DNA of 60,000 nucleotides from Amphiscolops sp. MND2022 (lineage: Eukaryota): NCBI GenBank assembly GCA_964187785.1, contig OZ076409.1, positions 67,458,001 to 67,518,000 of the forward strand, read 5' to 3'. The translations under genes and the position numbers were made by a program. Of this stretch, positions 35,024 through 60,000 are shown one piece after another. Numbering within the stretch: the stretch's first letter is position 1; the number at the start of each line of letters is the position of its first letter. The notes under the pieces were generated by a model that was given only the letters and a program-made list of their open reading frames with translations, was not told the DNA's origin and ran no database searches.

Positions 35024-35029
35024 AATAAA
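35024..35029 (+). promoter_or_regulatory. candidate poly(A) signal of the SYTL-like gene
   Basis: AATAAA about 680 nt after the stop, followed by a GT/T-rich tract. Confidence 0.35.
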
Positions 35030-35457
35030 TTTCGAAATGAGAAATGTTTGTTTTTCTTTCAAATTTCCTATCTGCAAGTTCAACTCTTACCACTTTAGCA
35101 AACAAAAAAAACCGATCGGTAGCTCATTTTGAGTGACACCTGATTAAACAAGCTTTTTCATGAAACAATTCCAATAATCATATGGATTACAGCAAATGAA
35201 GAATCATGAAGCTATTTTCAATTGTTTTTTTTTCATAATTGCCTTTCGGGGGCAATTGCTTTCGCCAGTTGTCACTGTAATAGCCTCTTCATATGATTTA
35301 AAAAAAACTTTACTGCAATGACTTAGATGCAAGTATCAATAATCTACTTGTTAGAGCGCAGCGAAGCAAAAGGTTTGAATTCCAACTGTAGAGTTCGGAA
35401 TTCAGAAGTAGTTAATATCTACATATTATTTCCAAATTTCAAAATGTTTTTCTGGTA

Positions 35458-36097
35458 GCTACTCCGTCCTGAATCTTCATTTGATACTGACCAGCTCTTT
35501 TTCAATCAATGATTTTCTTTTTAGTTGAAGAGAAAATAATTTTTCTAGTATTAGTTTTCCTAAGGTAACGTAACCAACGCTTAAAAACGCATTTTTCGCA
35601 ATAGGGATGTTCTGTCAGAAACAAATTCGTCTTGGCACGAACTTGGCTTGGGTGCGAGTATAGCCAGTAAGTTCGTACTTTTGGGGCTTTTGAAAAGAAT
35701 CGTAAAAAACCCAATCGTTGAAAGATGAAAACTTTTCTTAACAGTACAACATTTTTTTCACGTTTGTTGCAGGGCCTAGGCCCTGCAACAAACGTGAAAA
35801 AAATGTTGTACTGTTAAGAAAAGTTTTCATCTTTCAACGATTGGGTTTTTTACGATTCTTTTCAAAAGCCCCAAAAGTACGAACTTACTGGCTATACTCG
35901 CACCCAAGCCAAGTTCGTGCCAAGACGAATTTGTTTCTGACAGAACATCCCTATTGCGAAAAATGCGTTTTTAAGCGTTGGTTACGTTACCTTAGGAAAA
36001 CTAATACTAGAAAAATTATTTTCTCTTCAACTAAAAAGAAAATCATTGATTGAAAAAGAGCTGGTCAGTATCAAATGAAGATTCAGGACGGAGTAGC
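35458..36097. repeat. Perfect 640-bp palindrome (320-bp arms, no spacer)
   Basis: Centre AGGGCCT|AGGCCCT at 35777/35778. Identical 70-aa ORFs at mirror positions on both strands. Symmetry breaks at 35457/36098. Confidence 0.95.
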
Positions 36098-36589
36098 CTT
36101 GTCAATTTTGTCGGAATGTTGTCAAATAGGACTTGAAAACATTTTGCATGCAGCTTTCTCTATGTAATAATACTAAGTCGGAAATTTCCATTTCGTAACT
36201 GAATCGAGTGATGTCTAAAAGTTATCGCATTTCAATTTCTCATCTGACGTACTCAATTTTTCCCTATATGCCGGAGTACTAATTGCATGGTGGTCTGTTA
36301 ATGATTTGGGGCAATACGCAGGTGGTCCTAATAAATTTGGGTCTATGTGCAAAAAAAATGCCACCAAACACAATTCCATGAAAAAAATATCATTCTTGAA
36401 CATAATCACGAATCAGTTTTATCTTTAAATTGTCGGTTCATTTTAATGATTTCACATTGAACATTGACAAAAAAAGTTTGATGCTTTTTCCTGGTTTGTG
36501 AGGTGCCTGTGGTGCAGTGCTAAAGCAAAAGACTGCAGAATCAAAGCTATTTATAGATTTCCTCATGACAAAGCAAAATTAAGAACTTA

Positions 36590-37989
36590 GATTTTTTTCG
36601 GCACTGTGATACCTTTTTTCGAAATATTTTAATGTCTCCAAAGGGACCCCCTTCGATTTATTTTTTTATTTGAAACAGAACGGGTGTTAAAAAATCTCAA
36701 AGGGCCCCCCTTTTACATTTTTCGATTCTATGAGATTCTATTTTTTTGCCTGATATTAGGTTCTCTCAATATATATCCACCAAATACTTTTTTTCAACAC
36801 TGTCCAAATTTTGGAGGTTGAGGTTCAAAAATATTGCGCATTATCCGAATTTTCACCAATATATTCAAACAATATTACAGTTACTAAGGAGGAAGCGGAG
36901 GTTCGAAAACAATCGGTCCCAGTTGTCCCAGCACGCTATACCCGAACTTTTGACGTTATATCCAAGATATTTGCGTTTTACTGAGGAGGAGACGTAGGAT
37001 CAAACAAGCGCTCGTATTTGTCTCAGCACGCTATATCCGAACTTCTGAAGCGTTTACCGAGCACGGAAGGCACCCTTTTGGTGTTTCGAAGTTTTTTGTT
37101 AGTATTTCATAATTGTCTGAAGCATATTTTCAAAACATTGCGCTTTTTTGAGCCTCAGGTTTAGCGCCGACAATAGACGTTCCCGTCTTGTTCTTCCTTA
37201 TCTTCAGGCGGCGCATTTTCCCTTGAAGAAAAAAGTCCGACTATTACAGTGACTAGTTTTGTCAGATAGCAGAATGTATGCGTAGTGGAAAATTTTTACA
37301 GAAACTAATAAAATTACTAAGCTAGTGGACCGGCCAACGAAAACGTCAGGACAAGTCAGGACAACGAAAACGCCGCTAATTTAGTGCAGAGGGTCCCCCT
37401 CTTATTTTTTCCCCTTTTTTACCGTAACATACAAAACTGAACGAGAATAAAGGGTCCCACCTTTTGTTTTTTATTCGGCACTGTGAGACTTTTTTCCAAA
37501 GTGTCAAAATGTCTCCAAAGGGTCCCCTTTCAATTTTTTGACATTTTGAGAAAAAAAGGATGTTAAGAAATTCCAAAAGGTCCCCCCTTTTAAATTTTTC
37601 GGCACTATGAGATTGTTCAAAACTCTCACTTTTCGACTGATATTATCTCAATATATAGTTTTCTCAATATATATCAACTAGAAAATTTTTTTCACTACTA
37701 TCCGAATTTTCAAGTTGGGGGTTCCAAAAAATTGCGCAATATCCGACTTTTTGACGTTATATCCAAACTATATTGCGTTTTACTGTATCAGAGGCGTAGG
37801 ATCGAAAAAAGTGCTCGTCAAATCGCTATTTCTCAACTTCTGAAGTCTTTTCAGAACACAGAAGGCACCCTTTGAGCGTTTCGAAACTGTCTTCTGTGTT
37901 TTTCATAAAACTTCTCTGGCATATTTTAAAAATTTTGCGCTTTATGAGCCTTAGGGAAAGCGCCGACTTTAGACGTTCCCGTCTTGTTT
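36590..37989 (+). mobile_element. Two tandem HINE-like copies (ending 37192 and 37989)
   Basis: Two GCGCCGAC..AGACGTTCCCGTCTTGTT ends, a degenerate 5' hairpin at about 37205, and internal ATATCCGAACTT repeats. Confidence 0.65.
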
Positions 37990-39729
37990 TCCAAAACTTT
38001 GCCATGTTCCAATGCCATATCAAAATGAAAGGATTCGCCCGAAGTATTTCAACTAACAAAAACTCAGCTTCGTGCTATTTGTTGTTGTAGAGATTTTTGT
38101 GAATTGGAAAACCCATAGAAGTTAAGAATCGATAAGAGGAGCCTTTTAGAAGGCATTTTTGAAAAACAAATCCGAAAAGAATTCCTTTAGGAAGTGCCTC
38201 AAAACTATCCCAAAATACTAAGAATCAAAAAACTAACTTCAAATTTTCTACTTTTTGTCAACTTTTGTCGTTCTCCAATGTTTTAATGTTTTCGTGGTTT
38301 AAAATATCTGAAAGTTTCACGTTGAAAGAACAAGCTGTCCTGACGCTTTTTAGAAGAGAAAAAAAGGAACGTTTTTCGTTAAAAAGTGTCAAAGTGTCTC
38401 AGAGTGACCCCAAAAAACTACAAATTTAACCTTTTCGTTTCAAGGCAACTATTGAATAAACTTTGAGCTTTTGCAAAAAATAGAAGCTGAAGAAATCTCA
38501 TCAACGAACGAGCTGGCTATCGGGTACGCTGTTAGGAACAGTGATATAGTTTTTTTTGTTCTAAAAAACTCAGAATCACACCCAAAAACGTAGAATGTCG
38601 ATGTTGTGAACAGTTTACGATGTTTACAACACTTTTGAACGATTTAAGCGAAGCAAACAAGAAACAAACAATCAGTTGGTACGATTTAAGTTAAGAGTTT
38701 ATGAGAACATTCTGACATGACACCAAAAAAGACAAAAATCTCCATTTTTTGTCCATTATGCCGCATTCGTAGTTCAGTATTTTATCATTTGCAGTGGTTA
38801 GAATATCAAGGGACTAAATATGTCTTTATCACAAAGTATGTACCGACACAAAATATGTACCAAAATGACTTTTAAAAGGCGAATTGGATGCCTCTTAAGA
38901 AGTCTACTGTTTCAAACAACTTCCGTAAGTTTTAATTCACCTACTTTTTTGAAAACAAACTGTTCAATTTTTGGATATTTTCAGGATAGCAGCATACTCT
39001 TTAGGACAAAAGGCAATGTCAAAAAACCGCGAGAAGAGCTGTAAAACATAAAACCCAAAAATTAAAAAATTTGACATTTTAGTGATTATTTTTGTATTCG
39101 TTAGCCGTTTTTGTAGTTTACGAAACGTAGCCAATTGAACAACGAACAATATATTCATCAAAGATGTTCTCAGTGTAGGGGGAACGTCAATTATTGTCAC
39201 AGCCCGCTCCCGGTCTGGGATGTTGCTGCAAACGCATTGGAATTGGTAGAGGAGACGGTTGCAGCCTGCGATTCCCCAGGTGGTACTTTAATTGTTATTT
39301 CCAAACATTAGTACCCGCTTCCGAAATAAATTCTGACTGAAAATTTAAAATGTACGTCTATGTTGTGCAACTGTTAAACGAAAATGACAAAAAGAAATTA
39401 GGTGAGCTAAAATGATTTCACGCATTTCCGGCGAAACGTTTTTTGTCACTTCAGAATGAAAACATTCGCCACCTGAAAACTAAACTTGAACGCGTCTTAG
39501 AATAAAGACCACAGGCCATTTTAAATGAAAACATATTCAAAATTCCTTCTACAAAAGAACATCATTCAAATCTAAAACAGAAATTACATTGAGATGGCTC
39601 ACCGAGAGAATTATGCCTCATCTAAGAAAAGCAGCTTAATTGCACTTTGAACAGCAATTAATGTAGAACTAGGACGACCTTTCGTCGCTTAGTAAACAAA
39701 TACTGGTGATGCATGCAAATATTACTATA

Positions 39730-39962: not shown

Positions 39963-41170
39963 TGCGTCCAAAATCCATAAAAATAGCTGTTTTAGTCCAT
40001 CCAATATAATGAATAGAATGTAGTTTTAAAAACTTTTGTACTAGGAAAGCGCCTGAGACACGTATAAGTTACCTAGCATAAGAGTAAAAGGGCTTTTAGG
40101 ATGCGTCTACCTGTCGTCAGATGAAATATAGTCAATTTAAATATTTGCGTTAGGAATTAATCTAAATGAAACATTTCCACATTCTTTGAAACGAAAGTCA
40201 CAGTTTATTCTAAGGAACGTAATACGAATACATACTTATACTGTCCACTGTAAAACGTTGATCTATTTTGTACGAACTGTCGCTGCTTCAACGTATTGGG
40301 GAATCGAACGTTGTAGATTTTGGAGAATAACTTTTTGATAATGGAGCTATATTTTTCCAAATATTACATTTGTATCGCGTTGCTATGTTCATGATTTAAT
40401 GTCGTTCCAACTATGCATTGTGAGTTTTATTCGATTTCATTTTATCACCCGGAGCTGATGTTAGTGTTTAGTGTTTTCAGGTTTGTTAGTCTAGTCTGAC
40501 GTCGTTGACACGTTGAGCTATAATTATTTTAATTGTGTTTCTTCAGATGTAAAGATTACGCATAATAATCTATCTTAAATTAAGTGCTTTCATCAGTTAA
40601 CCAGTCCTTCTCTTCTCCTAGCATCTCCGAATATTACAACCAAAACAGAATTAGTCATAATTTTCTTCAAGTCAAAATTCAAGTTCAAGCACTAGTTGTT
40701 CACGTCAGCGTCATCTCTGCGTCGATTTTCCTTCTAACCAAAGCAGTAAATCAGGGAAATATTTCCAGTTTGACAGACTGAAGTAATATCTACTTCCTGC
40801 TTGTAAGGAAATAAAGGGACACCGGAATGAAATGATATGATCATGTTTGGTGTCTAATATTAGATCAAAATTGCCGTGCCTTAAAATTTGACGAAATGCC
40901 GACGCAAATTTGAGATCTATCTGATTTTTTCATCGAAATATATAGGAAATCAATAATTGTTCGAGGGAAATTAGGGATTTGTTCGTGATCAAATGATGCT
41001 AGAAGTGTATAAATATGAAGTGCTTCGATTCCTAAGGGACCCAGTTTTTTCTCATCTGTGAAAATCTGTTGTGCTACAATTTCTCTGCTTTTCAATCTCG
41101 TTCTCAACTTTGTTGAACAATTATCTCGAAAACCATTAAAAAAATTTCAAATTGAATCTCTTCATCTAAA

Positions 41171-41570
41171 ATGTCGACAACAAGAAGCCAAAAGAGAAAA
41201 AACAATCATCAGGAGAGCACCGAATGTGTAAGTGAAGGTTTAATTTCACCGATACTAGTAGAAAATGTCTGTCATTTAAATCAGGACGTTAGCATTGCGG
41301 GACCTTCCAGGCCGAAATCTCACAGGATTGAAAATAGCTTCTTAGAAAATTTGAGAGCCTCTTTGAAAGAGGAAATACCTTCCGAAATCAAGAGCCTTCA
41401 TGTAGAATCCCAGAGAGAGATGTTGAAGATACTGAAACCCAAATCAGGGGAGAATGTGAGGGAAAATATTGAAGAAGAAACGGAAAAGGAAACTAGAAAC
41501 TTTTACACTCCTACAAAATCTGTTAGGATAAATTCAACCCAAAATGACGACCCGAGCACGAGTCGTAACA
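41171..41570 (+). CDS. LTR-encoded ORF, probable N-terminus of gag, truncated at the LTR end
   Basis: 133 open codons MSTTRSQKRK...LRASLKEEIPSEIKSL... (basic start, coiled-coil) running to the exact LTR end. Confidence 0.55.
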
Positions 41571-42475
41571 ATTATGTCGTCGAATATTCTAGATAATAGC
41601 ATCTCTCTATAAAACTGTATTCGTCTGTATCAGCCCATTTTGCTGTCTCTGAATGCTAACCTTTGGTTTTAGCAATCTCGCGTCGTTTTTGTCCCGGTTA
41701 TAACTAGCTGCAGATCGGTTGAGAAATTTTTCTGCGTCTCCCGGACCATTTCGGCTAAATTCATCTCCTTGCTTTTTTTTGGCGTCGATTATTGGCGCTT
41801 TGCCTAGTATGACGTACTGGACTTTTTCTATTCCACTTCTAAAGTGGATGGGTAACCTCCTTTGCTGTTATTCATTTTGTCTTCCTCTGGATTGTCAAGT
41901 GGACATGTTGTACATTAGCGGTGCGACTTGTAGACCAATGATCATCTAGTATGGCTTGTTTGACGTAACCATGCCTGATCGGCAACTGTAGCAGCTGGTT
42001 TTCTTCGACTTGACTTGTGGGATTCTTAATCTCTTTAAATTGTTACTCGGTTGTTTTCATCTCATATCTGAAGATTTTGGGCTGCATTTCTGCAGACTTA
42101 TATTGTTAGACATTAAAACTTCTGTTAGCAATGTATAAAATTTGATTGAAGAGATATTTATTTTGGTGACGCAGCTCTGCCAAAACAGCCAGACATTTGT
42201 CTTTCGATATCTTGGACCGTTCCTCCAGAGCTGCTTGGGTGTTAGCAGGAGCAGCATTCACTTTTTCCTCATCGCTATTTTTACCCTCACCCTCTTTTGA
42301 TTCGGCAACTCTAGCGGCTGGTTTTCTTCGATTTGACTTGTGGGATTGTTGATTTGTGATTGGACCCGGATACCAGGTATATCCACGCATTGACGGTGTC
42401 TTGCAACCGATCAATCAAATCCTGTGTGCCATTCTTCTTCCAGCTAGTCAACTGTTCGATAATCCATTATGGAAC

Positions 42476-44129: not shown

Positions 44130-44825
44130 GGTTTAGTATCATTTCACCCCACGTTCATTTCACCCCATATCATTTCACCCCATGTTCATTTCACCCCAGG
44201 TTCATTTCACCCCAAATTAATTTCACCCCACGTTCATTTCACCCCACATTTAAATTATCAAATGCGTCTCAGATTAATTACTAAAGCCACCCAATTTCAA
44301 TCTTAGCGCTAATAGAAAAGCGTCTTGAATCTAATTACCAATTAGATAAGCAAACGATGCTTTCTATGTGAACCACAAATTGAAACCGAATAGTTTCATT
44401 TATCGGAATTGTAATACTTCTGAAAAAAGTGCTGAAAAAAAACATTTTTCTTCTGTCAATCAAAATTTACAATTATGAATGTTGCGAATTTTCAGCGAAA
44501 AATTTCTTATTCGGTGTTTCTACGGCAAAAAATCCTACAGGTCAAAAACTGACAATCAAATCAAAGCTGACTCAAAGACAGTAGGCATCTAAGGTTAATT
44601 GCTAATTGGTTAATTAAGGCGAGACGCTTTTGTATAATTACAATATGGTGTGAAGTGAAAATGAGGTGAAATGAACGTGGGGTGAAATGATTGTGGGGTG
44701 AAATGAATGTGGGGTGAAATGAATGTGGGGTGAAATGAACGTGGGGTGAAATGAATGTGGGGTGAAATAATATGGGGTGAAGTGATATGGGGTGAAATGA
44801 TTTTAGGGTGAAATGAACGCACACC
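44130..44825. mobile_element. Foldback/Mutator-like non-autonomous element with minisatellite TIRs
   Basis: 9-bp TSD GCATACTAT (44121-44129, 44826-44834); inverted arrays of a ~15-bp CATTTCACCCCACGTT unit at 44140-44248 and 44647-44820. Confidence 0.85.
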
Positions 44826-45391: not shown

Positions 45392-45700
45392 CTAAGCTGA
45401 CGAGAGTTGAATCTGAAGTCTTTCGAGATCGATCGCGCACTGCTCGGCTTTTTGAGTAGCCTCAGCTAATTCGGCCTGGGCTGCCTCGAACTTCGTTGTC
45501 TGCGACTCGACTTCGGATTTCTTGGTCTCGATTCGGACCTGAAGACTATCCTTTTCGTCTTTGCATTTATTTACGTCCTCTTTCCATTGCTCCAGAAGCT
45601 CGTTCGTGTACTGATTGGCCAGGATTTCATTATCTTCTTCAGCCGAAACGGAAACGACCCAAACACTCAAAAGAGCTACGATTACGTAAGCAGAATACAT
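45392..45700 (-). CDS. Small secreted acidic coiled-coil protein, 102 aa, family unknown
   Basis: ATG start, hydrophobic signal peptide ending VSVSA, heptad-rich E/Q/K/A body, two Cys; acceptor-like tttaattcag 17 nt upstream. Confidence 0.65.
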   Translation of the reverse strand: MYSAYVIVALLSVWVVSVSAEEDNEILANQYTNELLEQWKEDVNKCKDEKDSLQVRIETKKSEVESQTTKFEAAQAELAEATQKAEQCAIDLERLQIQLSSA

Positions 45701-46346
45701 TCTCTGGTGTTTGGAATCTGAATTAAATCTTTAATATTGAGTTTTTAAATGCTAGGCTCTTCTCAGGTATGAAACTAGTTGAATGCTGCTGAAAAACTGG
45801 TGAAAACTAATTCCAAATATGCACGTTCTATTTAATTTCAACGATCAATTATGTTACGAAGCGAAAACTTATGCTTGCTGATTTTTCAGTGCGTGCCAAA
45901 AATTCTTGATATGCCTGGTTTAACTTTCACATGGTGTCTTTCAATGTAGTTTGAACAAAACGTGATTGGCAGTGAACTGAGCTAAACTTTTGGATGCATA
46001 GCAGCTAAATTAAAATATGGTTTTAATATGGTTTGAATGCAAACTTGAATAATTATAATTTCATAGCTTTGAATTTTCATGTCAAATTGAAGAACATGTT
46101 TTGGTTCAAGTTATTCTACAAATCCCGAAAATTATATGAGTCGTTTTTTGGATATTTGATGTCCAAGTTTTTTTTCCTAAGTAAATTTTGAGACTTAGGA
46201 TTACAGTCTCCAGCTATTACTATAGTTTTTAGCCATTTATGTTGAAAAACTTCTCCTGGGTTTGGTGTTTCGTCTGGTTGGTGGAGCAAAGTGAAAGCTG
46301 TTGACGCTGACATTTATTATTATCAAATGACACCCCGTACTGACAT

Positions 46347-46752
46347 CCCATGGTAACCGACCACTGGCCATCGGTTCAAAATTTCTAGCAACTGAATGAA
46401 TCACTATACGAATTACCTTTAGACGTTATTGGCGCCCCTAATGCATCAAAGCCAAACAAAAATGGGGAATTATCAGGAGCGGTTCTGAAGTATCTGTAGA
46501 GTCTGTTTGCAGTTTCAGATCGTGTCCGAAAAGCATATTTTAACTGGTTTTTCCAGTGAATTTAGATCTTAAACCAGTTGTTTTTTCAGTAATGACACAT
46601 TTTGTGGTGGCCACTGGTGGACCACCGGTGGTAGAAATTTTCTCCCACCGGTGGTCCACCTCTGACCACCACAAAATGTGCAATAGCCATCGCAGTGGTC
46701 ACTGGTGAGGTTGCGATGGGAAGTGCGGTGACCACTAGTGTGTTGCCCTAGG
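46347..46752. mobile_element. Degenerate CCC-terminal MITE with internal ACCAC/GTGGT hairpin
   Basis: CCCATGGTAAC start versus inverted CCTAGGGCAAC end; strong hairpin at 46595-46680. Confidence 0.45.
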
Positions 46753-48116
46753 TTGTCAGTACGGACTCTATTGGTCATGTGAGCTGTTAAAAAGTTGTGT
46801 GGTGGTTTCTTTTAGATGTTTTATTACTGACATAAGAAGTCTAAGATTTTAACAGCAGAGTCGTCTTGTCTTATATCTTGTAGCTAGCTAGTTCTGAGTA
46901 CAATCTATTTCTGAGATCTCAGTTCTGGAAGTGTCTGAGGGAAGACCGATCGTCAGGATGAATTCTCAATTTCTCCGAGTAGATATATTCTATTAACTAG
47001 GGTAGGTTTCATCAATTAACAATGTGACAGCAACAGGATGAATCGGGGAAGCTTGGTACAGGATATATTAAATGAAGTTTCTTCTAGAATATTTAGCTTC
47101 CAAATTAGATTACATTTACTAATTACTTTGGTTAAGAGTTCAGAGTATTTCAGATTTATTGAATCTTTGAGGACATGCATCATGGCATCACAATCAACCG
47201 GGAATTTAAAATAAAACTACATATATGCACTTTGGGTTTGAGGAGTTCTAAAAATTTTTTGTTTTAGATGTTACATGCATGGGTTTGTTTCATATGTGTT
47301 GCACTGGAATTGCATGAGTTTCGTTCTGTAGAGTACCAAACTTAAGGGGTGAGAACAACCTAAGACGATTTGACTTCTTACGTCATAGACGATTCAATTG
47401 GTGCAAAAAGGTTCAAGCAAGGTTAAAGTTCTTTCAGTTTTTTGACTGACAAGTTTTTATGAAGTTATTGTTGACAACTATTTATTATTTCATGTTTCTT
47501 TTTCGTATCAGCCATCGGCTTGTTTGAAAAAAATTTTTCATCAACATGAGTTAGTCAGCATTGAAAACTTTTCAAGTTGAAGAATCAAAGCGTGAAGTTG
47601 TCAATGAGTTGTGAACCAACATTGGCGGGTATGTGAACCAAAAGTGAAGAAGTTTCGAAAAGTCAAGGTTCTAGTGAGAGTTCATTTTCAACTAAAGTGA
47701 AGAGTAGAGCAGAAGCAAAAGTTGAAGAAAACTTTGGCAATTTCAAGTTTCAAACATTGGAAAACGAGAAATTACAGTTTTGAAGAGTTCAAAAGAAAAA
47801 TTTTCCAAATTTTTGGGAATGTTTTTGGGAAGTAAAATAAAGGTGGAGAACATGTTGTGTAAAAAAAATTTTGTCCAAAAATCTTAGAAAATTTCTTGTG
47901 CTGTAGGTAGGACTTGTGTTCTGTAAAAGATGGGGATTAGAGATATATTTTTAAAGTGTATTATAGATGTAACAATATAATTAGATAAGATTATGTCAAT
48001 GTACTATACACAAGACAATGGAAGCAGATAATATTGCGGTTACAAAGATAATTATAGGTTGAATTTTGTAGGGATTTTGCAACAGAGGGGTAATTATAAT
48101 ACGATTATTGAAGATT

Positions 48117-48653: not shown

Positions 48654-49106
48654 TATTGAAACAGAGAATTTTGCGATGGAGGATGAGTTTGGTGTTGGAT
48701 CGGGTCATAGAGTTCTAATTTTTGAGTATACCCGAAATCTTTAAGCATATTATTAAAAGCGTCAGTGGCTTCTTGGAGAGCAGTACGGAAGTATTGATCC
48801 TTTGAAGTTAAGGGCGGAGTTTAGGACGAAAACAACATTAGATGCTGTTTCGCAAATTGCAATTTTGGGTGCTTCAAGGTGGATTCGCGAGTATTGCCCA
48901 AATGTAATTTTTTTCTTCTTTATTTGCGTGACATTGTAGAGGACCTTTAAGAAAGCAATGAGACATTTTGGCGTAATTTTGTTCTTGTTTATTTCGAGCG
49001 AGAGTTTAAATGCCATGGTGTGAAATATGGCGGCTTTGAGGCTATGCACTTTCGAGAAATCTGAGGTCATGGTAATAATGTCGTCTGTTTCAGCATTTGG
49101 AGCCAT
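48654..49106 (-). CDS. ORF-Z: unassigned 114-150-aa ORF
   Basis: ATG ORF 48762-49106; a frameshift near 48800 would extend it (..NFKDQYFRTALQEATDAFNNMLKDFGY..FQ*). Confidence 0.4.
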
Positions 49107-49522
49107 GATGTTGAGGGTTGGAAGATCGTGAAGAGAGAGAAGTGGAAATGTTCTGAAAGAATGTGGATGGAGGAGGGAGAAGAGAAGATGTTTCTAAAAC
49201 AGAGGAAGTGTAAGAAGAATGACAATATCAAGTCAAAAATGTACAACAAAATTGGGTGCTAGAATGTATCTTATGTAATGTTGTGCTATTTTGTTTTGTA
49301 TGTCTTGTATTGTAGTTGTTTGATAGAAGTAGTTATCTTTTTGACATGTACTGTAGGAAAGAATGTTGTACTTGAAAGATAGTCCTGAGATTTCATTCAA
49401 AAGCAAGATTTTACTTTAAATAAGTAGGTAAAAATTAAAATACCTTTTATAGTGTGCCAAAGATGTATCATAGAATGTACCAGAGAAGAAAAATTAAGAA
49501 CGTTTTATTACCTGTAGAAGAC

Positions 49523-50909
49523 TTAATGAAGATTAGTTGAGTTAAAAAGAGTAGTTATAGTTTCCAAAGCAGATTGAATTGCTTGGGATGATTGAGTGAT
49601 GTGTTGAGAGTCTAAATCGAGTGTCTGAAGGAGTTTGTGTGTTCTGTCGTAGCAGCGTAGGATATGTGTGAGTGTTGTGATAGGTGTTTCAGAGGAGTTT
49701 CGTTTATAGGGTTCAAGTAATGTTGTCATGTCGCGAAGTGTTCGGTTATTCAATACAGAAGAAAGTTTGTCAGGAGCGTTTTTTATAGGTGAAGCGTGTG
49801 ATTTATGTTCAGTTTTGTGTTCAGCTTGTACCATGAAAGAAATATTTTTAGCAGAAATAAAGAGAAGTTCATAGTAGGAACACGTTTGCTTGTAGAGTGC
49901 TGTATAGTAAGTTCTATCTTTATCGTCAAGTGGAGAAGATACTAGGTGTTTAATGACAGTGAGAGGTTTGGCAATTTGAGTAGGAATGTTGCAAGGCAAC
50001 AAAAAGTCATCGTAATGTATGACATATTCTTGAGGTACAATAAGTGGGCGTGAAGTATTGTTATATGGAAGCAAACAGAAGTATTGTTTTATAGGGTCAT
50101 AATTTCGAAGGTAGCCTGTTATACAGGAGTGGTCCAGAGTGTACATATTTGTCATTGTGAACGGTGATGTATATTTGTAATTGACAAAAATGTGATTTTG
50201 TGGTTTCGTGTATTGTAGGAATTTAGTATACGTTTGATGATGAGTAGCTTTTTGTGCTATAGAGAGAAAAGATGGATCAGATTCATCTGTTTTGAGATCG
50301 TAGATAGGTGGTCGAAGAAAATTGAATTGTAGAGAGAAAATTTTAATTCCATTATCGAGCCAATATTGGTATGGACCCATTATTTTGGAGGCAATGGATG
50401 TGAAGAAGTCTTGATTTTTGTCATATAAGCGAAATGAATAGTCGGTAGGATGCACATATAGAGAAGTTAGCTGTGCTTTAAAGACGAAATCGTCAGTAGA
50501 AAGGATTGGGATCAAATGATCATCGCGATTCGTGCAAAGTGAAAATTTTGAAGGGATTGAAGGAGGATATATTGGTGATGAAAGAAAGATTGGATCTTTC
50601 ATAATTTCATATCGTTTTTTTTGGAGGAGGTGCTGTCGGTTGTGTATGATCAGTATCATCTTGTGGAGGAGTAGGTTTTGAATTTTCGTGTTCAACTTTT
50701 TTGTGTTCCATTTGTTCAAGAAAAGTTGGAGGTGTTTGTTCAAAAGTCTCAATATAGAGAACAGGAGAATCATTTGAAAGAGGTCTAGTTATGAGATCTG
50801 CTGGGGTTGCTTGTTCAAGCTGTGTTTGTAGATCGATTTGTGCTTGTGTCATTGTGTTTTTGAAAATATCAACAGTCACAGTGTTATCTATTCCAAGAGG
50901 CCTTATCAC
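49523..50909 (-). CDS. ORF-Y: unassigned ~440-aa accessory ORF after env, frameshifted at an A8 run (50615-50622)
   Basis: ORF 50607-50909 (..TAPPPKK) joins ORF 49523-50773 (RYEIMKDPIF..) at the homopolymer; about 360 protein-like codons follow. Confidence 0.6.
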
Positions 50910-51118
50910 TTTAAAGTGAAAGTACTATAAATTACACTAACGAGTGGATTTATCAACTTTAGTTGAAAAGTTATTGAAGACGGTTATTATTAGAGATGTA
51001 TTATTGGGCTGAGGAAGATGAACTTCTGCAAGAGTTTCGAGGGGTGGAGGAGTAGCAATTGTGAAGAGATAGTAGGCAAGTGTGCTGGAAGAGAGTTACA
51101 AAAAAACTGAGAGAGTGT

Positions 51119-53833
51119 TCAAGAAGATGGAGGAGGAAAAGGATAGTTTATCCGCGAATAGATTTTAATTGGAGTATCCGTAGCAGAAGTGACAGGATTG
51201 TTAATTAAAGTGTCATGTTGAGTAGTTAGATTGTCATTCGGGTGAAAGTTTTTATGAGTATAATTAGGAAGTGGAGGATGTTGAACAGGGGAGAAAGGAA
51301 GTGGAGCTGTTTTTTGGTGAGAATTGTGGTGTCGTTTTGGAAGCAAGTTAAATTTAGGAAATTGAACTTTGTTAGGACGTTTAGTATAGAAAAGTGGAGA
51401 GAAGGTAACATCTGTAGAAGGATTAATTAGATTTGGAGAAGTGTCAATAAAATTATCTAAGGATTTGGATTTTAAAAGTGTACTTTTGGGTTTTTTGTTT
51501 TGAGTCTCATGGAGGTCACTGACCATTCGTGCTGTAAGAACATTAAAAAAACCATGTGCTGTAGAGCTAAAAAAGGTAATATTATTTTTGAGATTATATT
51601 TAATGGATATTGTTTTGTAAAGTTTGACAATGAGTGTAAGAGTAGCTTGTACAAAAAGAAATGTAGAAAAGTATATACCACATTGTGTGAGAATGTAACA
51701 AGGGTATCCAAAAAGTGCAATAAAAGCATCAGAAAACCATGTAGGTGTAAAAAGAGGAGTTAAATTCAAGAGTTTATCATGGAGTCCTACACGTAATGTA
51801 TTATAAGGATTACCAGAATCTTGAGGGGAATCTGCATCATAATTTGGAGTATTAGATGAAATGAAGGAATAACTAAGAGCTTTGTCTAACAATTGGAGTG
51901 TAGAGTCAGAATGTTTAGAAAATAAAATACGGTTCCAAAATTGATCAAGTTCTGCATTTGAATATATACCAGCATCTTGGGCTGTAAAAGTATTAGGACG
52001 TATCGTAGTTTTGATTTGTGAAGGTGAAAACATTAGTGGAGGTTTGCGTTTAATAGGTTCAGGTCCAAGAATGTAAAAGTCTTGATCACTTGAATCAGGA
52101 TCTAGTTCAATAATGTTACGTGTACGTGGATTATTGTCACAGGTAATTGGTGTAGCATAGTCATAGGTTTGTCTTGTAATTGGATCAACGTACATTAAGG
52201 TATCTTTAAAATGTAAAAATATACGGTCAAAGCATCTATCTGCTTTGTATAAAGGAGATAAAAAATGAGGACAGTCATAAAGCCAGGCGATTGAGCCTTC
52301 AACGTATATAAAATTACTTCTATTACCGGTTAAAAGGAAACCAGCAAGTTGAGGGTTTTGCACTGACATTGCGAGTATTGTAAGGAGTTGGTTTCGTTCT
52401 AATTCCCATATTGTATGAAGAGTATTTAGTTCTTGTACTGTCATTGATCTGAAGACATGATTAATAGTATAATCTATTTTGGTGTTTATATGTGCATCAT
52501 AATCAATGGTAGCAAAATTGTTTGAGACATTTAATGCAGGGAATACGAATTTGTTATTTGAAGTGTCCAATACTATTTTACCAGAAATATATTCATTAAT
52601 CATGGAATGAGGATTGGGTTGTCCTGTATGCATATTGAAACCATCAGTGTATGTAACAAAAAGGTCTGAATATTGTGTAGAATATAGAGGGTCTGGTTTA
52701 CCACAAAAGGTTTGTGCTGTAGGAAAAACTTAAAATCTTGAAAGACTTGGGTTGTTTGGATGTTGTGTATGGGGAGCATAAACATAGGGATATTCTGTAC
52801 TTTTGATACCAGAAGTTGTTTTAGTTTTTATTGGGTGTGGAGAATGTACAAAAGAGTCTGTTTCAATCCAATATCTATCTTCAATTTTAGTCATACGTCC
52901 AATAAAGTCTTTTAATGTAAAAATTAGACAATAATCATCATTGAACCAAACAAGAGTAAAAGGGGTTTTTGTTGTGGGTTTACAGAAACCATCTGCAAAA
53001 TAGCAGGGTAATGTATGTCCATCGATTATCATGTCATTAGATGTGTCATCATATGTAAGTTCTACTTCAGAAATTTCTAGTCGCCAACTAACTAAGTTGA
53101 CTTCGAATTGGTGATGAGCAGGACAGTTATGATAAGGGTTTTGAGTAGGGTCATATATGCAGTTTTTATCAGCAGGCATAAATGTAAATGTACCTGTATA
53201 CATTTTGTTCAGTTGATATACAGTGAAAGGAGTTTGATATTGCTCTAAACGTTATTGAAAATAATGGTCTTCTAAGAGTGTAAAAGTTTTATTGTAGTGA
53301 AGGTTATTCAGTATTTTATCATTTGTACCATTTAAATGTCCTATAATGTTTTTACTTTCTACTGGATCAAGAGTAACAGGGAGCGTTAATGTATTATGAT
53401 TCCACACGGTTCTATCAACACGACGGTATTTTACGGAACCTTGAAAGCATATTTTCCATTCTTTCTTTGCATAAGCAACACATTTGAAAGCTTTGATGCG
53501 TTTAGCTTTAGCTCGAACATATACACGGGCTTTAACACTTGCATGTTTAATGTCAGAAAGAGCTTCAGTGCATTGTTTTACATTAGGTAAATTAAATTGT
53601 CTAAAATTGTGTTGTTTTGCACAGTCATAATGAGAAACCATGAGATTCGTAATATTTGGGTCATCCGATAGAAGATAGTTTTCTGTGTCAGAGGGTGTTA
53701 TGGGTATGGAAAAGGTGAAGTTAAATAAATGTGAAAAAAGTATTAGATTTGTTATGTAAAAGGTTGTGTAGGGTTTAAAAAGATGTTGTATATTTGAGAC
53801 CGGAATATGGGTTACAGAAGACAATTTTGCCAT
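51119..53833 (-). CDS. env: env: envelope glycoprotein resembling chuvirus/class III fusion proteins, two in-frame TAA (53252-53254, 52730-52732)
   Basis: Three listed ORFs share one frame (~904 aa from ATG 53833). Signal-like FYITNLILFSHLFNFTFS, YDC..L..V..C, FCGKP..LFV, ELERNQLLTILAM..NP..AG, C...RCFDR...YVDPITR...PITC, and TM segment YILTQCGIYFSTFLFVQATLTLIV. Confidence 0.8.
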
Positions 53834-55013
53834 ATGTGATAGTGGGTATATTAAGATCGCGTTCAAATTCAATATGTACTACTTCAAAAGGAGCAGGAGA
53901 GGTTTTATGTTCTTTTTTAGAAACGTGAATGATTGGGTGTGGATTTAATCCTTGAAATTTGACTTTGACTTCAAATTTAAGTTCTAGATTTGGTGTCTGA
54001 AGGCGTTTTAGTTCTGTTTCTTTGCGTTTGTGAGATAAGAGGTCGTTGTTATTAATGAAACGTTCTGCAAGAATTGGAAATCGGGGGTCGTTTTGTGGGT
54101 CGTAGATGGTTATACCATCGACTCTAAGTGGATAGTCAGCAAAATTTGGAGTTGGGGGTCTAGAGTGTTCTGCAGTATAGTATTCGGGTAGTCTAATATG
54201 TGCAGGAACAGGAGTAGGGATTACTACTTGTGAAAAAAGGTCTCCTGATAAAAATGCAGTCTGAGAGTTAGATGAGAGTAATGAAGCGGTTTCAAAGCCA
54301 GAAGTAAAATAAGGAGATTGAAAGAGTTCTGAAGATTGTGTGTCGGAGGACAATGGTTGAGCGTGTTGTCGTACAAGTCGTAGTGCAGAATTGCTAGAAA
54401 GAGCGAAAAAATTGAGTGTTGAAGTGTCTGTACTGAGTCTACGTGAAGGGAGGTCGCGAAGATTATATCTATGTTTAGGTACAAAAAGTGAACTTGTGTC
54501 TTGTGATGGAGCGTAGTCTGAAGTATTGTCTAAGAGATTTGAGAGTAATGTAGAAGGTTTTCGAAGAGGTTTTAATGGTGGATAAAGTTTTGAAGAAGTA
54601 GTGCTAAGTTCTGATGGTAATTTCAGTGAAGGTAACTTTGTATTTTCAGTATCAGGGATTTGTACAAGATTAAGTTGATGTTGTAGTCTAAAAGTTTTGA
54701 TAGCTGTAGGATGTTTGTAAGTTACGTATTGTTCAACACTTTCAGGGTTTGGTATGTGTATAATATGAGTGTTAATAGGAGTTTGTTGAGTACGAGTGTT
54801 TATAGGGATTTCAGTTATAGGTGGTCTATGAAGAAGTGATGAAGAGGTGGTTTCAGAGACGTATGATCTTGGTCTTTTAGAAGGAGTAGTAGGAGTTACA
54901 TTACTAGAGTTTGTAGTGTTTGATACTGAAGATTCAGGTGTAGAAGGAATACTTGGAGCTGATGGAGATATATCAGAGGGAGAATCCAGGATTGTTGAAT
55001 TGTTCTCAACAGG
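53775..55013 (-). CDS. ORF-X: unassigned frame between pol and env (413 codons open; S/T/P-rich N-half, globular-looking C-end)
   Basis: The frame of ORF 53775-54353 stays open upstream to a TAA at 55014-55016; no intact ATG in this copy. Confidence 0.6.
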   Translation of the reverse strand, partial: PVENNSTILDSPSDISPSAPSIPSTPESSVSNTTNSSNVTPTTPSKRPRSYVSETTSSSLLHRPPITEIPINTRTQQTPINTHIIHIPNPESVEQYVTYKHPTAIKTFRLQHQLNLVQIPDTENTKLPSLKLPSELSTTSSKLYPPLKPLRKPSTLLSNLLDNTSDYAPSQDTSSLFVPKHRYNLRDLPSRRLSTDTSTLNFFALSSNSALRLVRQHAQPLSSDTQSSELFQSPYFTSGFETASLLSSNSQTAFLSGDLFSQVVIPTPVPAHIRLPEYYTAEHSRPPTPNFADYPLRVDGITIYDPQNDPRFPILAERFINNNDLLSHKRKETELKRLQTPNLELKFEVKVKFQGLNPHPIIHVSKKEHKTSPAPFEVVHIEFERDLNIPTITYGKIVFCNPYSGLKYTTSF

Positions 55014-55105
55014 TTATCTATGAGATAACTTGTTATTGGGTTTATTTCATTCATCTGGAGTGACTAGTTTGGAGTGAGCCAGCGGATAGAATGATGGGAT
55101 TACAA

Positions 55106-58100
55106 TTACAATTTTGAGGGTGTAATAAAAAGTCTATATTCTAATTTGGGTTGTTGTCGTAGTTTATAAGTAGTTTTTGTGGTTCTGTCAATTAGAGGAG
55201 GAAGTGAAGTTGTTTGGTTATTAGATGAGTGTCTTGATCTGTCACTAGAGACATTAGTGTGTGGGGTATTAATTATATGTCTATATAAGGAGTTGTCATT
55301 GGTTGAGGGAGTCAAAGATTTGTCATTGGATGTTATAGATGGTGTATTTTGATTGGACGTACTAAATGATGATGGTGTCACAAATGTTTGAGACGAATTA
55401 TTCATGGTGGATGATGTCATGGATGTTCGAGAATCTTCTTCTGATAAGGATTCGTCTGAGTTAAAAGGGGAAGAATAACTGTTTGCATATTTGGTAGGTT
55501 GTGGAATTTGGAATTGAGTTGTGTCTGAAAAGCGCATAAAACTACGCAAATGTGGATATAAGAGTGGTTCTTTTGGATAATATGGAATTAAATGATTTCT
55601 ATGATAGTGTACTGTAGAGCCATCTTGTGCAAGTAGTTCAAATGTAACATCTGATAATCTATCAATAATTTTGTATGGTCCAATCCGAAGGGCTTTTAGT
55701 TTGTCAGAAAAATGAACATGTGTAAAATTGCGTTTTAAAACAAAGGTACCAATAGGAAGGGGTTTACCTTCGTGGTAAGTTTTTGTAATGTATGCGTGTG
55801 AATTGATTTTTTGTAAAGTGTTTTCGTATATTGTGGAATAAATTTGTAACATAACAGTTTCTACAGCGAGAAACCAATAGGGGATGGGTTTTGAAAGTGT
55901 TTTATAAAAAAATGGGTTTAAATCTGATTTATCATAATGGGAGTGTTCTGGAAGTTGAGAGCAATAGCGTGAAATACATGTTTTAGAGGTGTCTCGGTTA
56001 AGGTTTAAATCAAACGTAAGGGGTATTCTGGATCGGGTGTGGAAAACAACTTCGTGATGTGAAATATTGAGTTCCGAAAGTGGTTGTGAATTATGTGCAT
56101 AAGCGTACCTATGGACTTGGAATGCCCAATCTTTAGGTGTGTCATGTAATAACATTCGTAGATGGGTACCAAGATTTCTGTTTTGTACTTCGACAAGGCC
56201 ATTTGTCCAAGGAGAGTAAGTTGTTCTAGGAGAATGACGAATTCCCATAAGTGTACAAAGGTGTGCCATTTCTTTATTTACATATTTTGATCCACGATCA
56301 GTGACAAGATATATAGGTGGTCCAAATTTAATAATCCAATGGTGTAGGAGAGTTTTGATAGCAGTCTTTGCGTTGTTTGATCTGATGGGTACTGTAACAA
56401 CAAAGTGACTAAAAGCATCAATTATGACATGTATGTAGGATTTGTTGTGAGAAGGAGGATTAATAGGTCCTTTAGTGTCCATTGAAATTCGATAGTTGAA
56501 AGATGGAGCATGTTCTGAAAATGATTGTGTAGGAGCAGTTTGAATTTTCGTATTGAAGTGTTTGTTACGTTGACATTCAATACAGTCATGTATGAAAATG
56601 GAAAGCCATTTTTCAAGGAATGGAATGTAGTAATACTGTTTAAATGTATTGTATGTAATTTTCATACCAGTGTGAGAGTGTTCATGGAGTTTGTTAAAGG
56701 CAGTTTTGAACATTCGAAAAGGAAGACATATACGAGTAGTGTCTTGTACAAAATTTGGAGTAAAGGATTGGTTTATAACAGTAGGGTTTGTAATATATAG
56801 GCTAATAAGGTTTGTGAACTCGTCAATGAAAAATTGTGAAAATCTTTTGTAATATACATGTAAAAATGGAGTACCAGTGATAATAGGTGTTACAAATTCG
56901 GGTTTTTCATTGTTTAATAACCAAGAATAAACAGTTCTAAGAACCGGATCTTGGGATTGTTGTTGTTGAAGAGTTTTTATGTCTAATGAGTAATCATCTG
57001 GAAGGAAGAAACCTTGAAAATAGTTTTTGTACTTCAAAAATGATGTATCATAGAAAGGTATAATTTGTTGACAGTGTGTGAGAGATGGTAAATTTGGTTG
57101 TACACTTATTGCAGAAACAGATTTTGGTGAGGTAGTGTGAGTTATTTGGTTAAGAGTAGAATAGTTTTCTGTTTGTAATGTTGTGTCTTGTAGGAAGGAA
57201 GAGTCAGATTTTGGAATTCTGGTGTATATATGATCTTCGTCATCGCTTGAAACGTCAGTTTCATTAAGTAAGAGAGATTGTTGATGAAGGGTTTTATTGT
57301 TCTTTTTTATAGGTGTCTTGAACTTAGTTTGAAAAGGAGTTATAGATTTGAATGAGAAAGATTGTAACGGTTCGACAACAATATCATTTCCTTTATCATT
57401 GATACGAATAGAGAATTGATCTGTACCATAATCAGCGAGAATTGGATGAGAGTCATGTTTTTGATGAGATAAAATTTCTCCATGTTTAATTAAGTAATGT
57501 ACAGGTTTAAGAGTGTTATCTTGTAGAAGTGCAAAATCGATTTGTGGTGGAAGGTGTTTATGTTTTAATTGGTTTAGTTGTAATTCAGCTTTTGTGAAAG
57601 AGCGACTCAACATATCGGCAACAGAGAGATTTTTTCCAGGAGTGTGAATTATTTTGAGTTTTGAAAATTTTGTCAATTGCATTTGAGCTCTGTAGAAACG
57701 AGGACTGAGATTACCTTTCTTCATAAAACAATGTAATAAAGGTTTGTGATCAGTAAAAATGTGTATTGGATGGGGAGAACCTATGATAAGAAATTCATAG
57801 ATTTGAAGTGTGTGTACTATACCAAGAAGTTCTCTATCGAGTGTAGAGAGTTTTTGTTCTTGTGGATTAAGTATACGAGAGTTGTACGATATGACTTTCA
57901 TTTTGTTTTGTTCATTTAACTGGAATAAGACAGCGCCTAATCCAATAAGGGAAGCGTCAACTGTAATGAAAAATGGATGTTTTGTATTTGGTATTGTTAG
58001 TTCTGTTTCAGAAGTGAGAGACATTTTAAGTTTTTGGAAAAGACTTTCGTGTTCGTCTGTCCATTTCCAAGGAGTGTTCTCATGTAAAAGATCGTAAAAT

Positions 58101-60000
58101 GGTTTGAGATTAATATGTAGTTTTTCAATAAATTTGGTGTAAAAATTGAGTGCGCCAATGAAACTCATTAGGGCAACTTTGCCAGTTGGAGAAGGGATTT
58201 TATGGATAGCTGCAATTTTCGAATGGATTGGTTTAATTGTATTGTAACCAATTTCATGTCCAAGGAATTTGACTTTAAGAAGCATGAAAAAGGATTTTTC
58301 AGGAGTTAGTTTAAGATTGTTTTTTGTACTAATAATGTCTAGTTGTTCTATGAGTTGGAACATGTGTTCTTTAAAATCTGATAAAAGTAATATATCGTCA
58401 ATGTAGACAAGAGCGAAACCTTGTTCTATAAGAGTTTTAAAGAAAGTAGACATTTGTTTTGTAAAGAAATTTGGGAGTCCTTTCAGACCATAAAAGCCTC
58501 GGATAAAAGCGAAAAGTTTATCTCCGGAAGAGAAACTAGTAAGTTTTAGAGTGTCTTCATCAAGAGGTGTATGTGCATAGGCATACATAAGGTCAATAGC
58601 AGATTTGTACTTTTTATTTGCGCGTGCTAATTGTGGAGCAAGAGGTTCAATAGGCCAAGATTCCTCAGAATGTTCTGTATTGGAATTAAGGTGTCGAGCG
58701 TCTAATACACATTTTATTGTATCTCCCTTGGGGATTATAATGAGAGGGTTTAAATAAGTTGTGCCATAAACGGGTTTGTCTTGAGGAGAGGAACCAATTT
58801 GTTTGATAATGTTATATTTTTCAAGTTCTTTGAGAAGTACGTTAAGTTTGTATCGGTAGTGAATAGGGACTTTGGAAGGACGTTGTGTCATAAGTTGAGC
58901 ATTTGGTTTAAGTCGTATACGAAAGGGTGTTGAAATTTTTCCAACATCGTTTTTATGAGTTGCATAACATGTTTTATACTTGAGTAACATATTGCAAAAA
59001 GTAATGTATTCTGTATCTGTATGGTCAGAAAATTGGAAGTTAAATTTATTGATAAAATTGAGATTTTTAGAAGTGTATGGTAGAGAAGGAAAAATGCGTT
59101 TTTCGGAAGTGTGAGAAGTAGGCTGAACGTTTTATAAAGGAGAAGTTTGATTTGGAATGTCGTCATTAGTCATATAAATTTGATGTAGAGAGAATTGAGG
59201 AGAAGGGGTTGTAGGATCATCATATTGTACAATATAGTTGGTTTGTGGAAGTGGTTCTGTAATTTCAGGATGATAAGTATGAGTAACATTATGTATTAAA
59301 GTATTGATGTCATTAACCTGGAAGAATTTAGGTTTTTCATTAGTAATTGGAACTTCAATGTATCCAATATGTCCTGTAGGTAGTGTTGCAACATGTTTTG
59401 AGGTGTTCTGAATAATAGTTGCACAAATATCTGGTTTGTCATCTGTAAATACTTCAATGAAATTGAAATTTGTACGAAATTTGGTAGCAAAATAGGTATG
59501 AGGTACTGAAGGAAAGAAGTGGTTTTGTGGTGTAGTTGTAAAATGAAGATTATGATAATTTTTTATTGGAAAGTGTGCAATTTTTGAAGACTTGGGTTTT
59601 AGACGTATTTGAGTTTTTGAATTAATTCTATAAATGTAAGAGAAGTATGGATAATCTTTGGATAGGAGTGTTGTGAACTTTGCATAATTTGGGTGTGTTT
59701 TTGATTGGTATTTAAATTCGAATGTAAAGTCTTGTATGTTTATGTTTTGTATATTGTCTTCAAAGAATGGTGTGCCAAGGATGTTGTATTTGATATCAGC
59801 TACTGCGAAAGCTACTGAAAAGTAACGAGAGTCTTCATCAATAGTGGTGTTCAAAATTATATTTGCATAATGTAAAATAGGAACTTCAGTTTGGTTTGCA
59901 ACGGTTAATGATTTGGAATTTCGAGTTGGTCCAACATCAGAGGTGTGATTTGATCTGATATCTAGAAGTTTTGTAAGAGTTATGTATGTTGGGTAATTGA
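55106..60000 (-). CDS. pol: pol polyprotein (protease C-part, RT, RNase H, integrase with GPY/F), one in-frame TAA at 59132-59134
   Basis: NILGTPF (PR), FYGLK and YIDD (RT), DAS...ELL...TDHKPL (RH), HEHSH...CIEC zinc finger, DTKG/TDRG/NGLVE catalytic DDE, IGPYKI. ORFs 59132-59854 and 55106-58990 share one frame. Confidence 0.95.

Follow-up and report, generated by a model that had tools for sequence, protein, structure and literature searches.

We analysed a 60,000-nucleotide window (G000:C1:67458001-67518000) of the 1.07-Gb genome assembly of Amphiscolops sp. MND2022, in which an initial annotation had flagged a Ty3/Gypsy retrotransposon carrying a chuvirus-like envelope glycoprotein gene. 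The element occupies the minus strand, with the gene order gag-pol, open reading frame (ORF) X, env, ORF Y and ORF Z, and runs past the end of the window, its 5' long terminal repeat (LTR) lying about 8 kb beyond (Table 1). Strand skew is strong across the element region (GC skew ~0.3-0.5 from ~47 kb onward). The two LTRs are 99.0% identical, a primer-binding site starting with TGG follows the 5' LTR and is conserved throughout the clade, and the stretch before the 3' LTR is likewise conserved, yet not purine-rich in the 18-kb family to which the element belongs. This copy is dead: stop codons interrupt gag-pol and env, Y is frameshifted and Z ends early. It spans 21.6 kb between its LTRs, lengthened by a 3,565-bp tandem duplication inside gag-pol (halves at 58063-61625 and 61628-65190 in extended window coordinates, 99.4% identical) that was found in the window copy alone among 11 copies examined. 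The initial annotation had missed the more unusual features of the element, namely its 18-kb size, its three accessory genes and the apparently CUG-started X.

Table 1. Positions of the element's features in the window, and of TRAF-like genes in sister families
Feature	Position	Strand	Remarks
Target-site duplication, 4 bp, CATG	46776..46779	.	partner copy flanks the 5' LTR outside the window
3' LTR, 413 bp	46780..47192	-	TG...CA ends; 4 mismatches to the 5' LTR
ORF Z, accessory gene	48762..49193	-	150 aa from first Met in siblings; early end in window copy
ORF Y, accessory gene	49523..50924	-	447 aa in siblings; window copy divided by a frameshift
env, predicted class III glycoprotein (Mono-Chu G / herpes gB type)	51119..53833	-	904 codons; assigned by profile and predicted fold
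ORF X, counted from the likely CUG start	53775..54989	-	no Met; N-part rich in P/S/T; carries RYNLR; C-terminal domain conserved
RYNLR motif in ORF X	54456..54470	-	like the nucleosome-binding peptide of foamy-virus Gag (YNLRPR); putative function
Candidate start codon of X, conserved in-frame CUG	54987..54989	-	A at -3, G at +4
Candidate 3' splice site	55017..55035	-	AG ending ~55018, between last upstream AUG and CUG; weak, putative
pol	55106..59131	-	1,341 codons; RT (YIDD), RNase H, H2C2 zinc finger, integrase core, C-terminal SH3-like domain; Pfam
Protease-region frame of gag-pol	59135..60000	-	divided from the RT frame by a stop; runs past the window into the tandem duplication
5' LTR, 413 bp	67951-68363, extended window coordinates (G000:C1:67525951-67526363)		~8 kb past window end
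TRAF/MATH gene loci, sister families	L067:6554-7324; L072:2635-3453; L099; L101	-; +;; 	on G000:C5, C11, C4, C7

The env gene corresponds to the ~900-codon frame singled out by the initial annotation, and most of what had been said of it holds. Two in-frame TAA stops interrupt the window copy at codons 194 and 368; with these masked, the protein matches the Pfam family PF24664 (Monjiviricetes_fusion) with an E-value of 1.8e-17, scoring 63 bits where the cut-off is 27. A sibling Env reaches 82 bits against the same cut-off, and the family is matched in 43 of 51 aligned Env relatives. The Cys-rich ectodomain (15 cysteines and 10 N-glycosylation sequons in the window copy) is followed by a single predicted transmembrane helix at residues 718-736 and a P/S/T-rich tail of ~170 residues. 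The signal-like N-terminus that had been noted is weak in the window copy, where none of the N-terminal windows exceeds the hydropathy threshold, and more distinct in an unbroken sibling, which passes it at residues 27-45. The sequence motifs listed by the initial annotation are all there, in columns conserved down to relatives of 26-28% identity.

The fold prediction points the same way. The ectodomain of a sibling Env was modelled as a monomer with AlphaFold2 from a 51-row alignment (pLDDT 74.5, pTM 0.53). Foldseek against the PDB placed herpesvirus glycoprotein B (gB) in all the top rows (E 1e-12, TM-score 0.25-0.29), and against predicted viral structures it placed G proteins of xinmoviruses, chuviruses and qinviruses on top (E 2e-26 to 5e-25, TM ~0.4, 11-16% identity), with gB behind them at E 1e-11. 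A second, independent aligner run against 48,161 chains gave 8 matches with Z of at least 5, all of them class III fusogens (gB, rhabdovirus G) or their domains, the best being gB (Z 8.6, root-mean-square deviation 13.9, 399 aligned residues). The model also matches the G proteins of rabies and Chandipura virus, the GP of thogotovirus and PH domains, in keeping with a predicted class III architecture made up of a nested beta fusion domain, a PH domain and a long central helix. The low whole-model TM-scores to gB and the pTM of just 0.53 weigh against this assignment. By prediction, Env is a class III fusogen nearest to Mono-Chu G, and we regard it as almost certain that the element combines a Gypsy backbone with a class III env. 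Searches with sequence alone were less informative: Env against solved structures gave 6 chance rows as a single protein and none as a 51-row profile, a scan of viral contigs for Env relatives gave 98 pattern matches of which none was confirmed, and a cluster look-up of 10 Env relatives returned no named member. An F-type env, of the baculovirus F or paramyxovirus F kind, was considered and rejected on the class III profile and fold and on the furin motif R-x-[KR]-R, present in none of the four Env proteins scanned; F-type fusogens are not in the fold rows listed for Env, which by itself excludes nothing.

The initial annotation had placed env downstream of a protease-reverse transcriptase-RNase H-integrase pol. 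Reverse transcriptase (RT), RNase H and integrase are all matched by Pfam (RVT_1, RT_RNaseH, RT_RNaseH_2, Integrase_H2C2 and rve, with Retrotrans_gag upstream in a sibling), but no protease family is matched in a sibling's Gag-Pol, and ORF X intervenes before env. A protease would nonetheless be expected between Gag and RT from its position and from a D-T-G motif found there in sister families. Against solved structures, the RT matches that of Ty3 best (E 3e-36), ahead of caulimovirus (2e-26) and foamy virus (2e-17). In a tree of 49 RT cores, six env-bearing elements of the genome fall into one 21-row clade (SH-aLRT 99), which forms a long branch inside Gypsy; two BEL/Pao RTs included from this genome lie far from it. 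The clade includes members of other genomes; one high-copy RT group has at most 45% identity to anything here, and RT identity drops to ~33% or less beyond the clade. As a point against it, this tree comes from a quick search with SH-aLRT support only; it contained no retrovirus or caulimovirus rows, and a motif filter had removed 2 of 7 env families, 4 of 6 BEL loci, 3 of 7 named Gypsy references and five unnamed proteins. By Pfam match, closest solved relative and tree, the RT is Ty3/Gypsy and far from BEL/Pao. A class III match was thus obtained, baculovirus F was not the best match and the RT did not group with BEL/Pao, so that none of the outcomes named by the initial annotation as speaking against it occurred.

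The window copy belongs to a large and recently active family. A 22-base exact junction of LTR and primer site occurs 1,768 times in the genome (reversed control, 0), and we put the family at about 1,800 copies. Searching the genome with an env fragment gave 7,591 candidates; among the best 150, 111 lie in open frames of 913-927 codons. From these best 150 we drew 10 siblings, picked for open env frames. They measure 17.4-18.2 kb and show the same gene layout between matching LTRs in every case, with an exact 4-bp target duplication in 9 of 10 and identical LTRs in 7 of 10; these insertions are recent, and the family, unlike the window copy, is not dead. Gag-pol is a single frame of ~2,730 codons in the siblings and is unbroken in half of them, X is intact in all ten, env (~900 aa) in all ten by choice, Y (~447 aa) in eight and Z (~150 aa) in nine. 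The search for intact copies suggested by the initial annotation was successful, as all five frames are unbroken together in four siblings. Separately, three env copies were seen at an exact spacing of 18,204 bp (G000:C9:7862217, 7880421 and 7898625), which could be a head-to-tail tandem array or an assembly artefact.

Selection acts on all five genes. Pairwise ratios of non-synonymous to synonymous divergence (dN/dS) among the 10 siblings and the window copy were 0.06 for RT-RNase H, 0.07 for integrase, 0.06 for the env ectodomain, 0.23 for the env tail, 0.26 for the N-terminal part of Gag, 0.09 for X, 0.13 for Y and 0.08 for Z. Between families, the ratio was 0.16 for X and 0.05 for env (0.02-0.06 across families, with synonymous sites near saturation). 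All five genes are therefore under purifying selection, with dN/dS of 0.06-0.13 in their core regions. Two points have to be held against these values: the choice of open env frames pushes the env ratio low, leaving X, Y and Z unaffected, and the 55 copy pairs are mutually dependent. X, Y and Z played no part in choosing the copies and are therefore real genes of the element; that it holds five genuine genes is, in our judgement, very probable.

ORF X is the most unusual of these genes. Situated between pol and env, its open frame in the window copy covers 412 codons (55013-53775, minus strand) and overlaps the beginning of env at its 3' end. In all 23 copies checked, drawn from four families with Env proteins 52-80% alike, X has 412-477 open codons without a single methionine, a state with a chance probability of 0.002-0.007 per family given the methionine frequency in other genes. 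All 23 copies carry an in-frame CUG near the 5' end of X, at a homologous L-D position and in a strong Kozak context (A at -3, G at +4). The region upstream of this CUG is unconserved, and the open frame of X opens just 6-45 codons earlier. CUG makes up 1.2-2.8% of leucine codons in other genes (three families checked); X holds 40-62 leucines, and the conserved CUG is the sole CUG or one of two. The X region is also poor in AUGs of any frame: the same number of families gave 2, 1 and 2 over 1.2-1.4 kb, where ~10-12 would be expected by base composition, and those present open frames of only 1-16 codons. From these features of the sequence it is quite probable that X starts at the CUG, and we find it reasonably likely that env is made by ribosomes that scan leakily past it.

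Several points weigh against this reading. With codon usage controlled for, out-of-frame AUGs are modestly depleted (p 0.017-0.044, 0.26-0.43 and 0.08 for the three families), so that most of the X signal lies in the absent methionine and the fixed CUG. As the four families are related, the 23 copies amount at best to four partly independent observations. Furthermore, the candidate splice acceptors are weak, and splicing, CUG use and env expression are all deduced here from the gene sequence. A look-up of sequencing runs holding the env region listed no RNA; the one run listed consists of contigs and shows presence alone, with no informative junction. The alternative that survives best, although we consider it unlikely, is that X is a second exon joined to an upstream exon with an AUG, or else is reached through a frameshift out of the short AUG frame upstream, with env on a spliced RNA of its own and the CUG an RNA signal or a coincidence. 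Such an arrangement would fit the AG dinucleotides that each of the four families has after its last upstream AUG and ahead of the CUG, the AUG frame that starts 61 nt upstream in the window family and overlaps X out of frame, the weak out-of-frame AUG depletion, and the fact that retroviral env and accessory genes are usually spliced. However, it leaves unexplained why a rare CUG flanked by A (-3) and G (+4) is fixed at the same place in four families and why methionine is lacking altogether, and it sits poorly with the unconserved upstream sequence and with an open frame beginning so shortly before the CUG.

As to the function of X, the protein has no Pfam match and no relative among solved structures, and it retains an RH-x-YNLR motif. 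In the foamy-virus Gag peptide, as described in the open-access text, Tyr and Arg are the residues that bind the acidic patch of the nucleosome (PMC12125541). Against a shared role, the YNLR likeness spans 4-5 residues, and similar motifs also end Pol in the clade. We think it rather unlikely, arguing from this analogy, that X tethers the incoming complex to chromatin.

The two genes downstream of env are more difficult to place. Y is conserved over three families at 31-45% identity, and neither Y (above cut-off) nor Z has a Pfam match; Y also lacks a usable Atlas match, the best 120 of its 1,633 relatives all being without a name. The Y model is poor (pLDDT 39.6), and its fold-search matches, generic helical bundles with a best Z of 7.4, were disregarded. 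A small beta-barrel common to Y and the downstream genes of sister families was likewise considered and rejected, as shuffled controls outscored the real Y and the profile-profile probability was 0.4%. Homology of Y to those genes is unsupported, which weighs against reading their roles across.

More distant env-bearing families of the same genome (env ~27% identical, 12.3-19.5 kb) have extra genes of their own. In four sister families of 19.1-19.5 kb with 2-kb LTRs, the last gene is TRAF-like. The two such genes scanned match Pfam TRAF-mep_MATH at E 1e-21; the best solved match is TRAF1 (E 3e-12), and a coiled coil is present and a RING absent. Between those two families the dN/dS of this gene is 0.05, dozens of near-identical copies exist, and 490 candidates were found genome-wide. 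The other two of the four families have their TRAF-like gene in the same slot, at 27-30% identity. A TRAF without a RING has the look of a dominant-negative decoy, and by this analogy the TRAF-like gene may act as one. A role of Y and Z against the host is possible by analogy with this gene, which occupies the same slot, though we hold it only tentatively. A TRAF decoy, if true, would suggest that immune signalling of the host is something these elements encounter, a point that matters for whether env-bearing Gypsy elements outside insects truly travel from cell to cell.

Relatives also occur beyond this genome. A separate downstream motif is common to eight frames from sister families and three metagenome contigs. 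One metagenome contig of 13,166 bp (L084) carries gag, pol and env together with two downstream ORFs that are paralogues, and a short repeat occurs at either end of the contig; L085 and L087, from other samples, carry the downstream motif, and L086 is a further relative from another sample. Two side observations concern the sister families. In three of the 19-kb loci (L068, L071 and L099), a pol-env interval of ~4-4.7 kb contains 1-2 small related ORFs of ~150-200 codons, apparently duplicated, with a dN/dS of 0.11 and no Pfam match. Moreover, L064-L065 (G000:C7:21875581-21883297) is a 7.7-kb internally deleted copy with near-identical LTRs that lacks gag and RT and whose env and downstream gene are still open; it is possibly a non-autonomous env carrier.

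Taking the genes together, we think it fairly likely that the window holds a decayed copy of an 18-kb, five-gene Gypsy element with a class III env, which probably spread in enveloped form, produced X from a CUG and produced env by leaky scanning. Under this model, the genomic RNA would yield Gag-Pol as one frame, with reverse transcription and integration as in other Gypsy elements. A subgenomic and probably spliced RNA would start shortly before the CUG, where the smaller share of ribosomes would begin X, while the remainder would scan ~1.2 kb of nearly AUG-free sequence and then start env. Further RNAs would likely give Y and Z. Env trimers on budding particles could fuse with a neighbouring or germ-line cell, X might tether the incoming complex to nucleosomes through its YNLR motif, and Y and Z might act against host defences by analogy with the TRAF-domain gene in the same slot of sister families; the last two are the weak steps. 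The apparent non-AUG start would set the ratio of accessory protein to envelope.

That the element moves from cell to cell in particles appears likely to us, 'infectious', as suggested by the initial annotation, being inferred from the selection on env. An element that is purely intracellular and keeps env for some other use, such as direct cell-cell fusion or vesicle traffic reaching new nuclei, is improbable. In its favour, the element is known here from its genes, with particles deduced from them, and the authors of PMC13524379 describe, in the text consulted, the entry mechanism as unknown for gB-type elements and herpes gB as needing partner proteins. On the other hand, env keeps a full ectodomain and a transmembrane anchor, and its dN/dS of 0.02-0.06 near synonymous saturation is the pattern expected of an entry protein.

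The pairing of Gypsy with a chuvirus-like env is itself in print. Chary and Hayashi (eLife 2026; PMC13524379, like the other papers cited here drawn upon for its open-access text) reported 1,512 env-carrying Gypsy elements across animals, 114 of them found via chuvirus-like glycoprotein baits, and described gB-type env in most animal phyla, arguing for an ancient, pre-Cambrian origin. The headline of the initial annotation was therefore already known: the pairing confirms a 2026 result, and it is the remaining features that extend it. The 18-kb family has the Ty3/gypsy pol and gB-type env in intact, multicopy form by which that study recognises such elements. Its search admitted a pol-env gap of up to 1,000 nt and a region of up to 10 kb (PMC13524379); the X-bearing gap is 1.27 kb, so the 18-kb family would escape it. 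The primer site of the family had no match in the eLife element table, and a motif search of the eLife alignments gave none either, the rows seen there spanning a different part of the ectodomain. The terms accessory, splic-, leaky and extra do not occur in the main text of PMC13524379; in a longer version the search index counts 'accessory' twice, which may bear on how new the accessory genes are. An earlier study reported, in its open-access text, no clear capture by Gypsy (PMC10084718).

The initial annotation had also proposed that a Gypsy lineage took its G gene from a chuvirus, independently, and this claim was not upheld: such a capture, recent enough to trace, now seems quite improbable. 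What speaks for it is that, in the search of predicted viral structures, Mono-Chu G stands far ahead of herpes gB (E 2e-26 as opposed to 1e-11), that the RT clade sits on its own long branch, and that the lineage, its primer site being absent from the eLife table, may fall outside that set (PMC13524379). Yet the top rows are spread over three virus families and share 11-16% identity with Env, and therefore a chuvirus donor is not singled out. Env also ranges over 26-61% identity inside one genome, with members in elements of other samples too, and Gypsy with such a glycoprotein has been published as ancient (PMC13524379). In an env tree of 27 rows, the four families with X, Y and Z group together (support 100), apart from the others, in agreement with the RT tree, which fits pol and env having been inherited together for a long time; the env family is old and extends across the clade. 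Finally, two readings can be dismissed for practical purposes, namely a BEL/Pao element like Anakin and an accidental joining of Gypsy to an endogenous chuvirus fragment: BEL/Pao elements are abundant in the genome (6,212 candidates) and capture of chuvirus G was first described there (PMC7642597; PMC12440569), but pol matches Gypsy-type Pfam families with no Peptidase_A17 match in the window copy or a sibling, its RT lies far from the genome's own BEL RTs, and one layout recurs between matching LTRs in 10 of 10 siblings.

Comparison with known systems sets the element apart in several respects. With Drosophila gypsy and ZAM (Errantivirus, with a baculovirus-F-type env), the source of the soma-to-germline infection model, it shares the union of Gypsy and env; unlike them it has a class III env without R-x-[KR]-R, plus accessory genes. 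At 18 kb it is about twice their size. Entry of Drosophila gypsy into neighbouring or germ-line cells by means of env is cited in PMC13524379. The element resembles the errantiviruses with an env of the herpes simplex virus gB type in its Gypsy pol, in gag-pol preceding env, in its class III env and LTRs, and in having many near-identical copies with a strongly conserved env (PMC13524379). It differs from them in its 18-kb length, its three additional selected genes, the 1.27-kb gene between pol and env, the methionine-free X with a conserved CUG, and a copy number of ~1,800 as opposed to 'one to hundreds' (PMC13524379). Anakin, a mosquito BEL/Pao element (Dezordi et al. 2020, PMC7642597), is also an LTR retroelement with a chuvirus-like glycoprotein, but the RT here is Gypsy and not BEL/Pao.

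A precedent for the proposed translation strategy exists in plants. In rice tungro bacilliform virus (RTBV), the first ORF starts from a non-AUG codon and is AUG-free, so that ribosomes scan ~900 nt to the next ORF (PMC5902531). Our element would share with RTBV and the badnaviruses a non-AUG first ORF and scanning to the next gene; unlike it, RTBV is a plant pararetrovirus that uses AUU after a ribosome shunt, while here a CUG is proposed in an animal LTR element with env downstream. Bdelloid rotifer LTR elements (PMC5408684) are similarly Gypsy-like with extra captured genes, but have a single ORF3 slot taken by env, an esterase or an exonuclease, whereas here two or three more genes accompany env, with a TRAF/MATH gene present in sister families. 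Complex retroviruses (foamy viruses and lentiviruses) also have accessory genes around env, and a bicistronic accessory-env RNA, as in HIV vpu-env, is what we propose here. The YNLR motif of X adds a likeness to the chromatin-binding peptide of foamy-virus Gag (PMC12125541). In contrast to complex retroviruses, the RT is Ty3-like (E 3e-36 as opposed to 2e-17 for foamy virus) and the env belongs to class III, and we found nothing in X, Y or Z homologous to retroviral accessory proteins.

In the open-access literature we did not find the five-gene 18-kb layout, a CUG-started gene before env, or a TRAF gene such as that of the sister families. Env-bearing Gypsy elements have been described as three-gene genomes, and the thriving clade seen here has up to three more selected genes. 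We tentatively suggest, giving it somewhat less than even weight, that these elements form an undescribed clade of 'complex' invertebrate metaviruses of 12-19.5 kb, with a class III env, a CUG-initiated gene bicistronic with env, further accessory genes and a TRAF decoy in sister families, multiplying in more than one host. If true, accessory complexity and the capture of an immune adaptor would have arisen in Metaviridae in parallel to complex retroviruses and large DNA viruses. With ~1,800 copies and many recent insertions, expression, the translation start and particles should be easily detectable in the host.

The remainder of the window held several minor features. An 85-bp imperfect palindrome (46596-46680) lies 100 bp off the insertion site, and similar palindromes occur in the opposite flank. 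Two inverted arrays of a 16-bp unit, ~400 bp apart (44137-44819), have the look of a DNA element of the foldback or miniature inverted-repeat transposable element type. A 112-codon frame at 45392-45730 (minus strand), with a signal-peptide-like start and a coiled-coil pattern, possibly encodes a small secreted host protein, and a 146-codon frame at 41156-41596 (plus strand) belongs to a dispersed repeat, a similar frame flanking another element. Further away, a cluster of short dispersed repeats (23580-38000; 50-150 bp, 60-90% alike) probably represents decayed non-autonomous elements, and several low-complexity frames at 4700-26900 (plus strand) resemble exons of one host gene.

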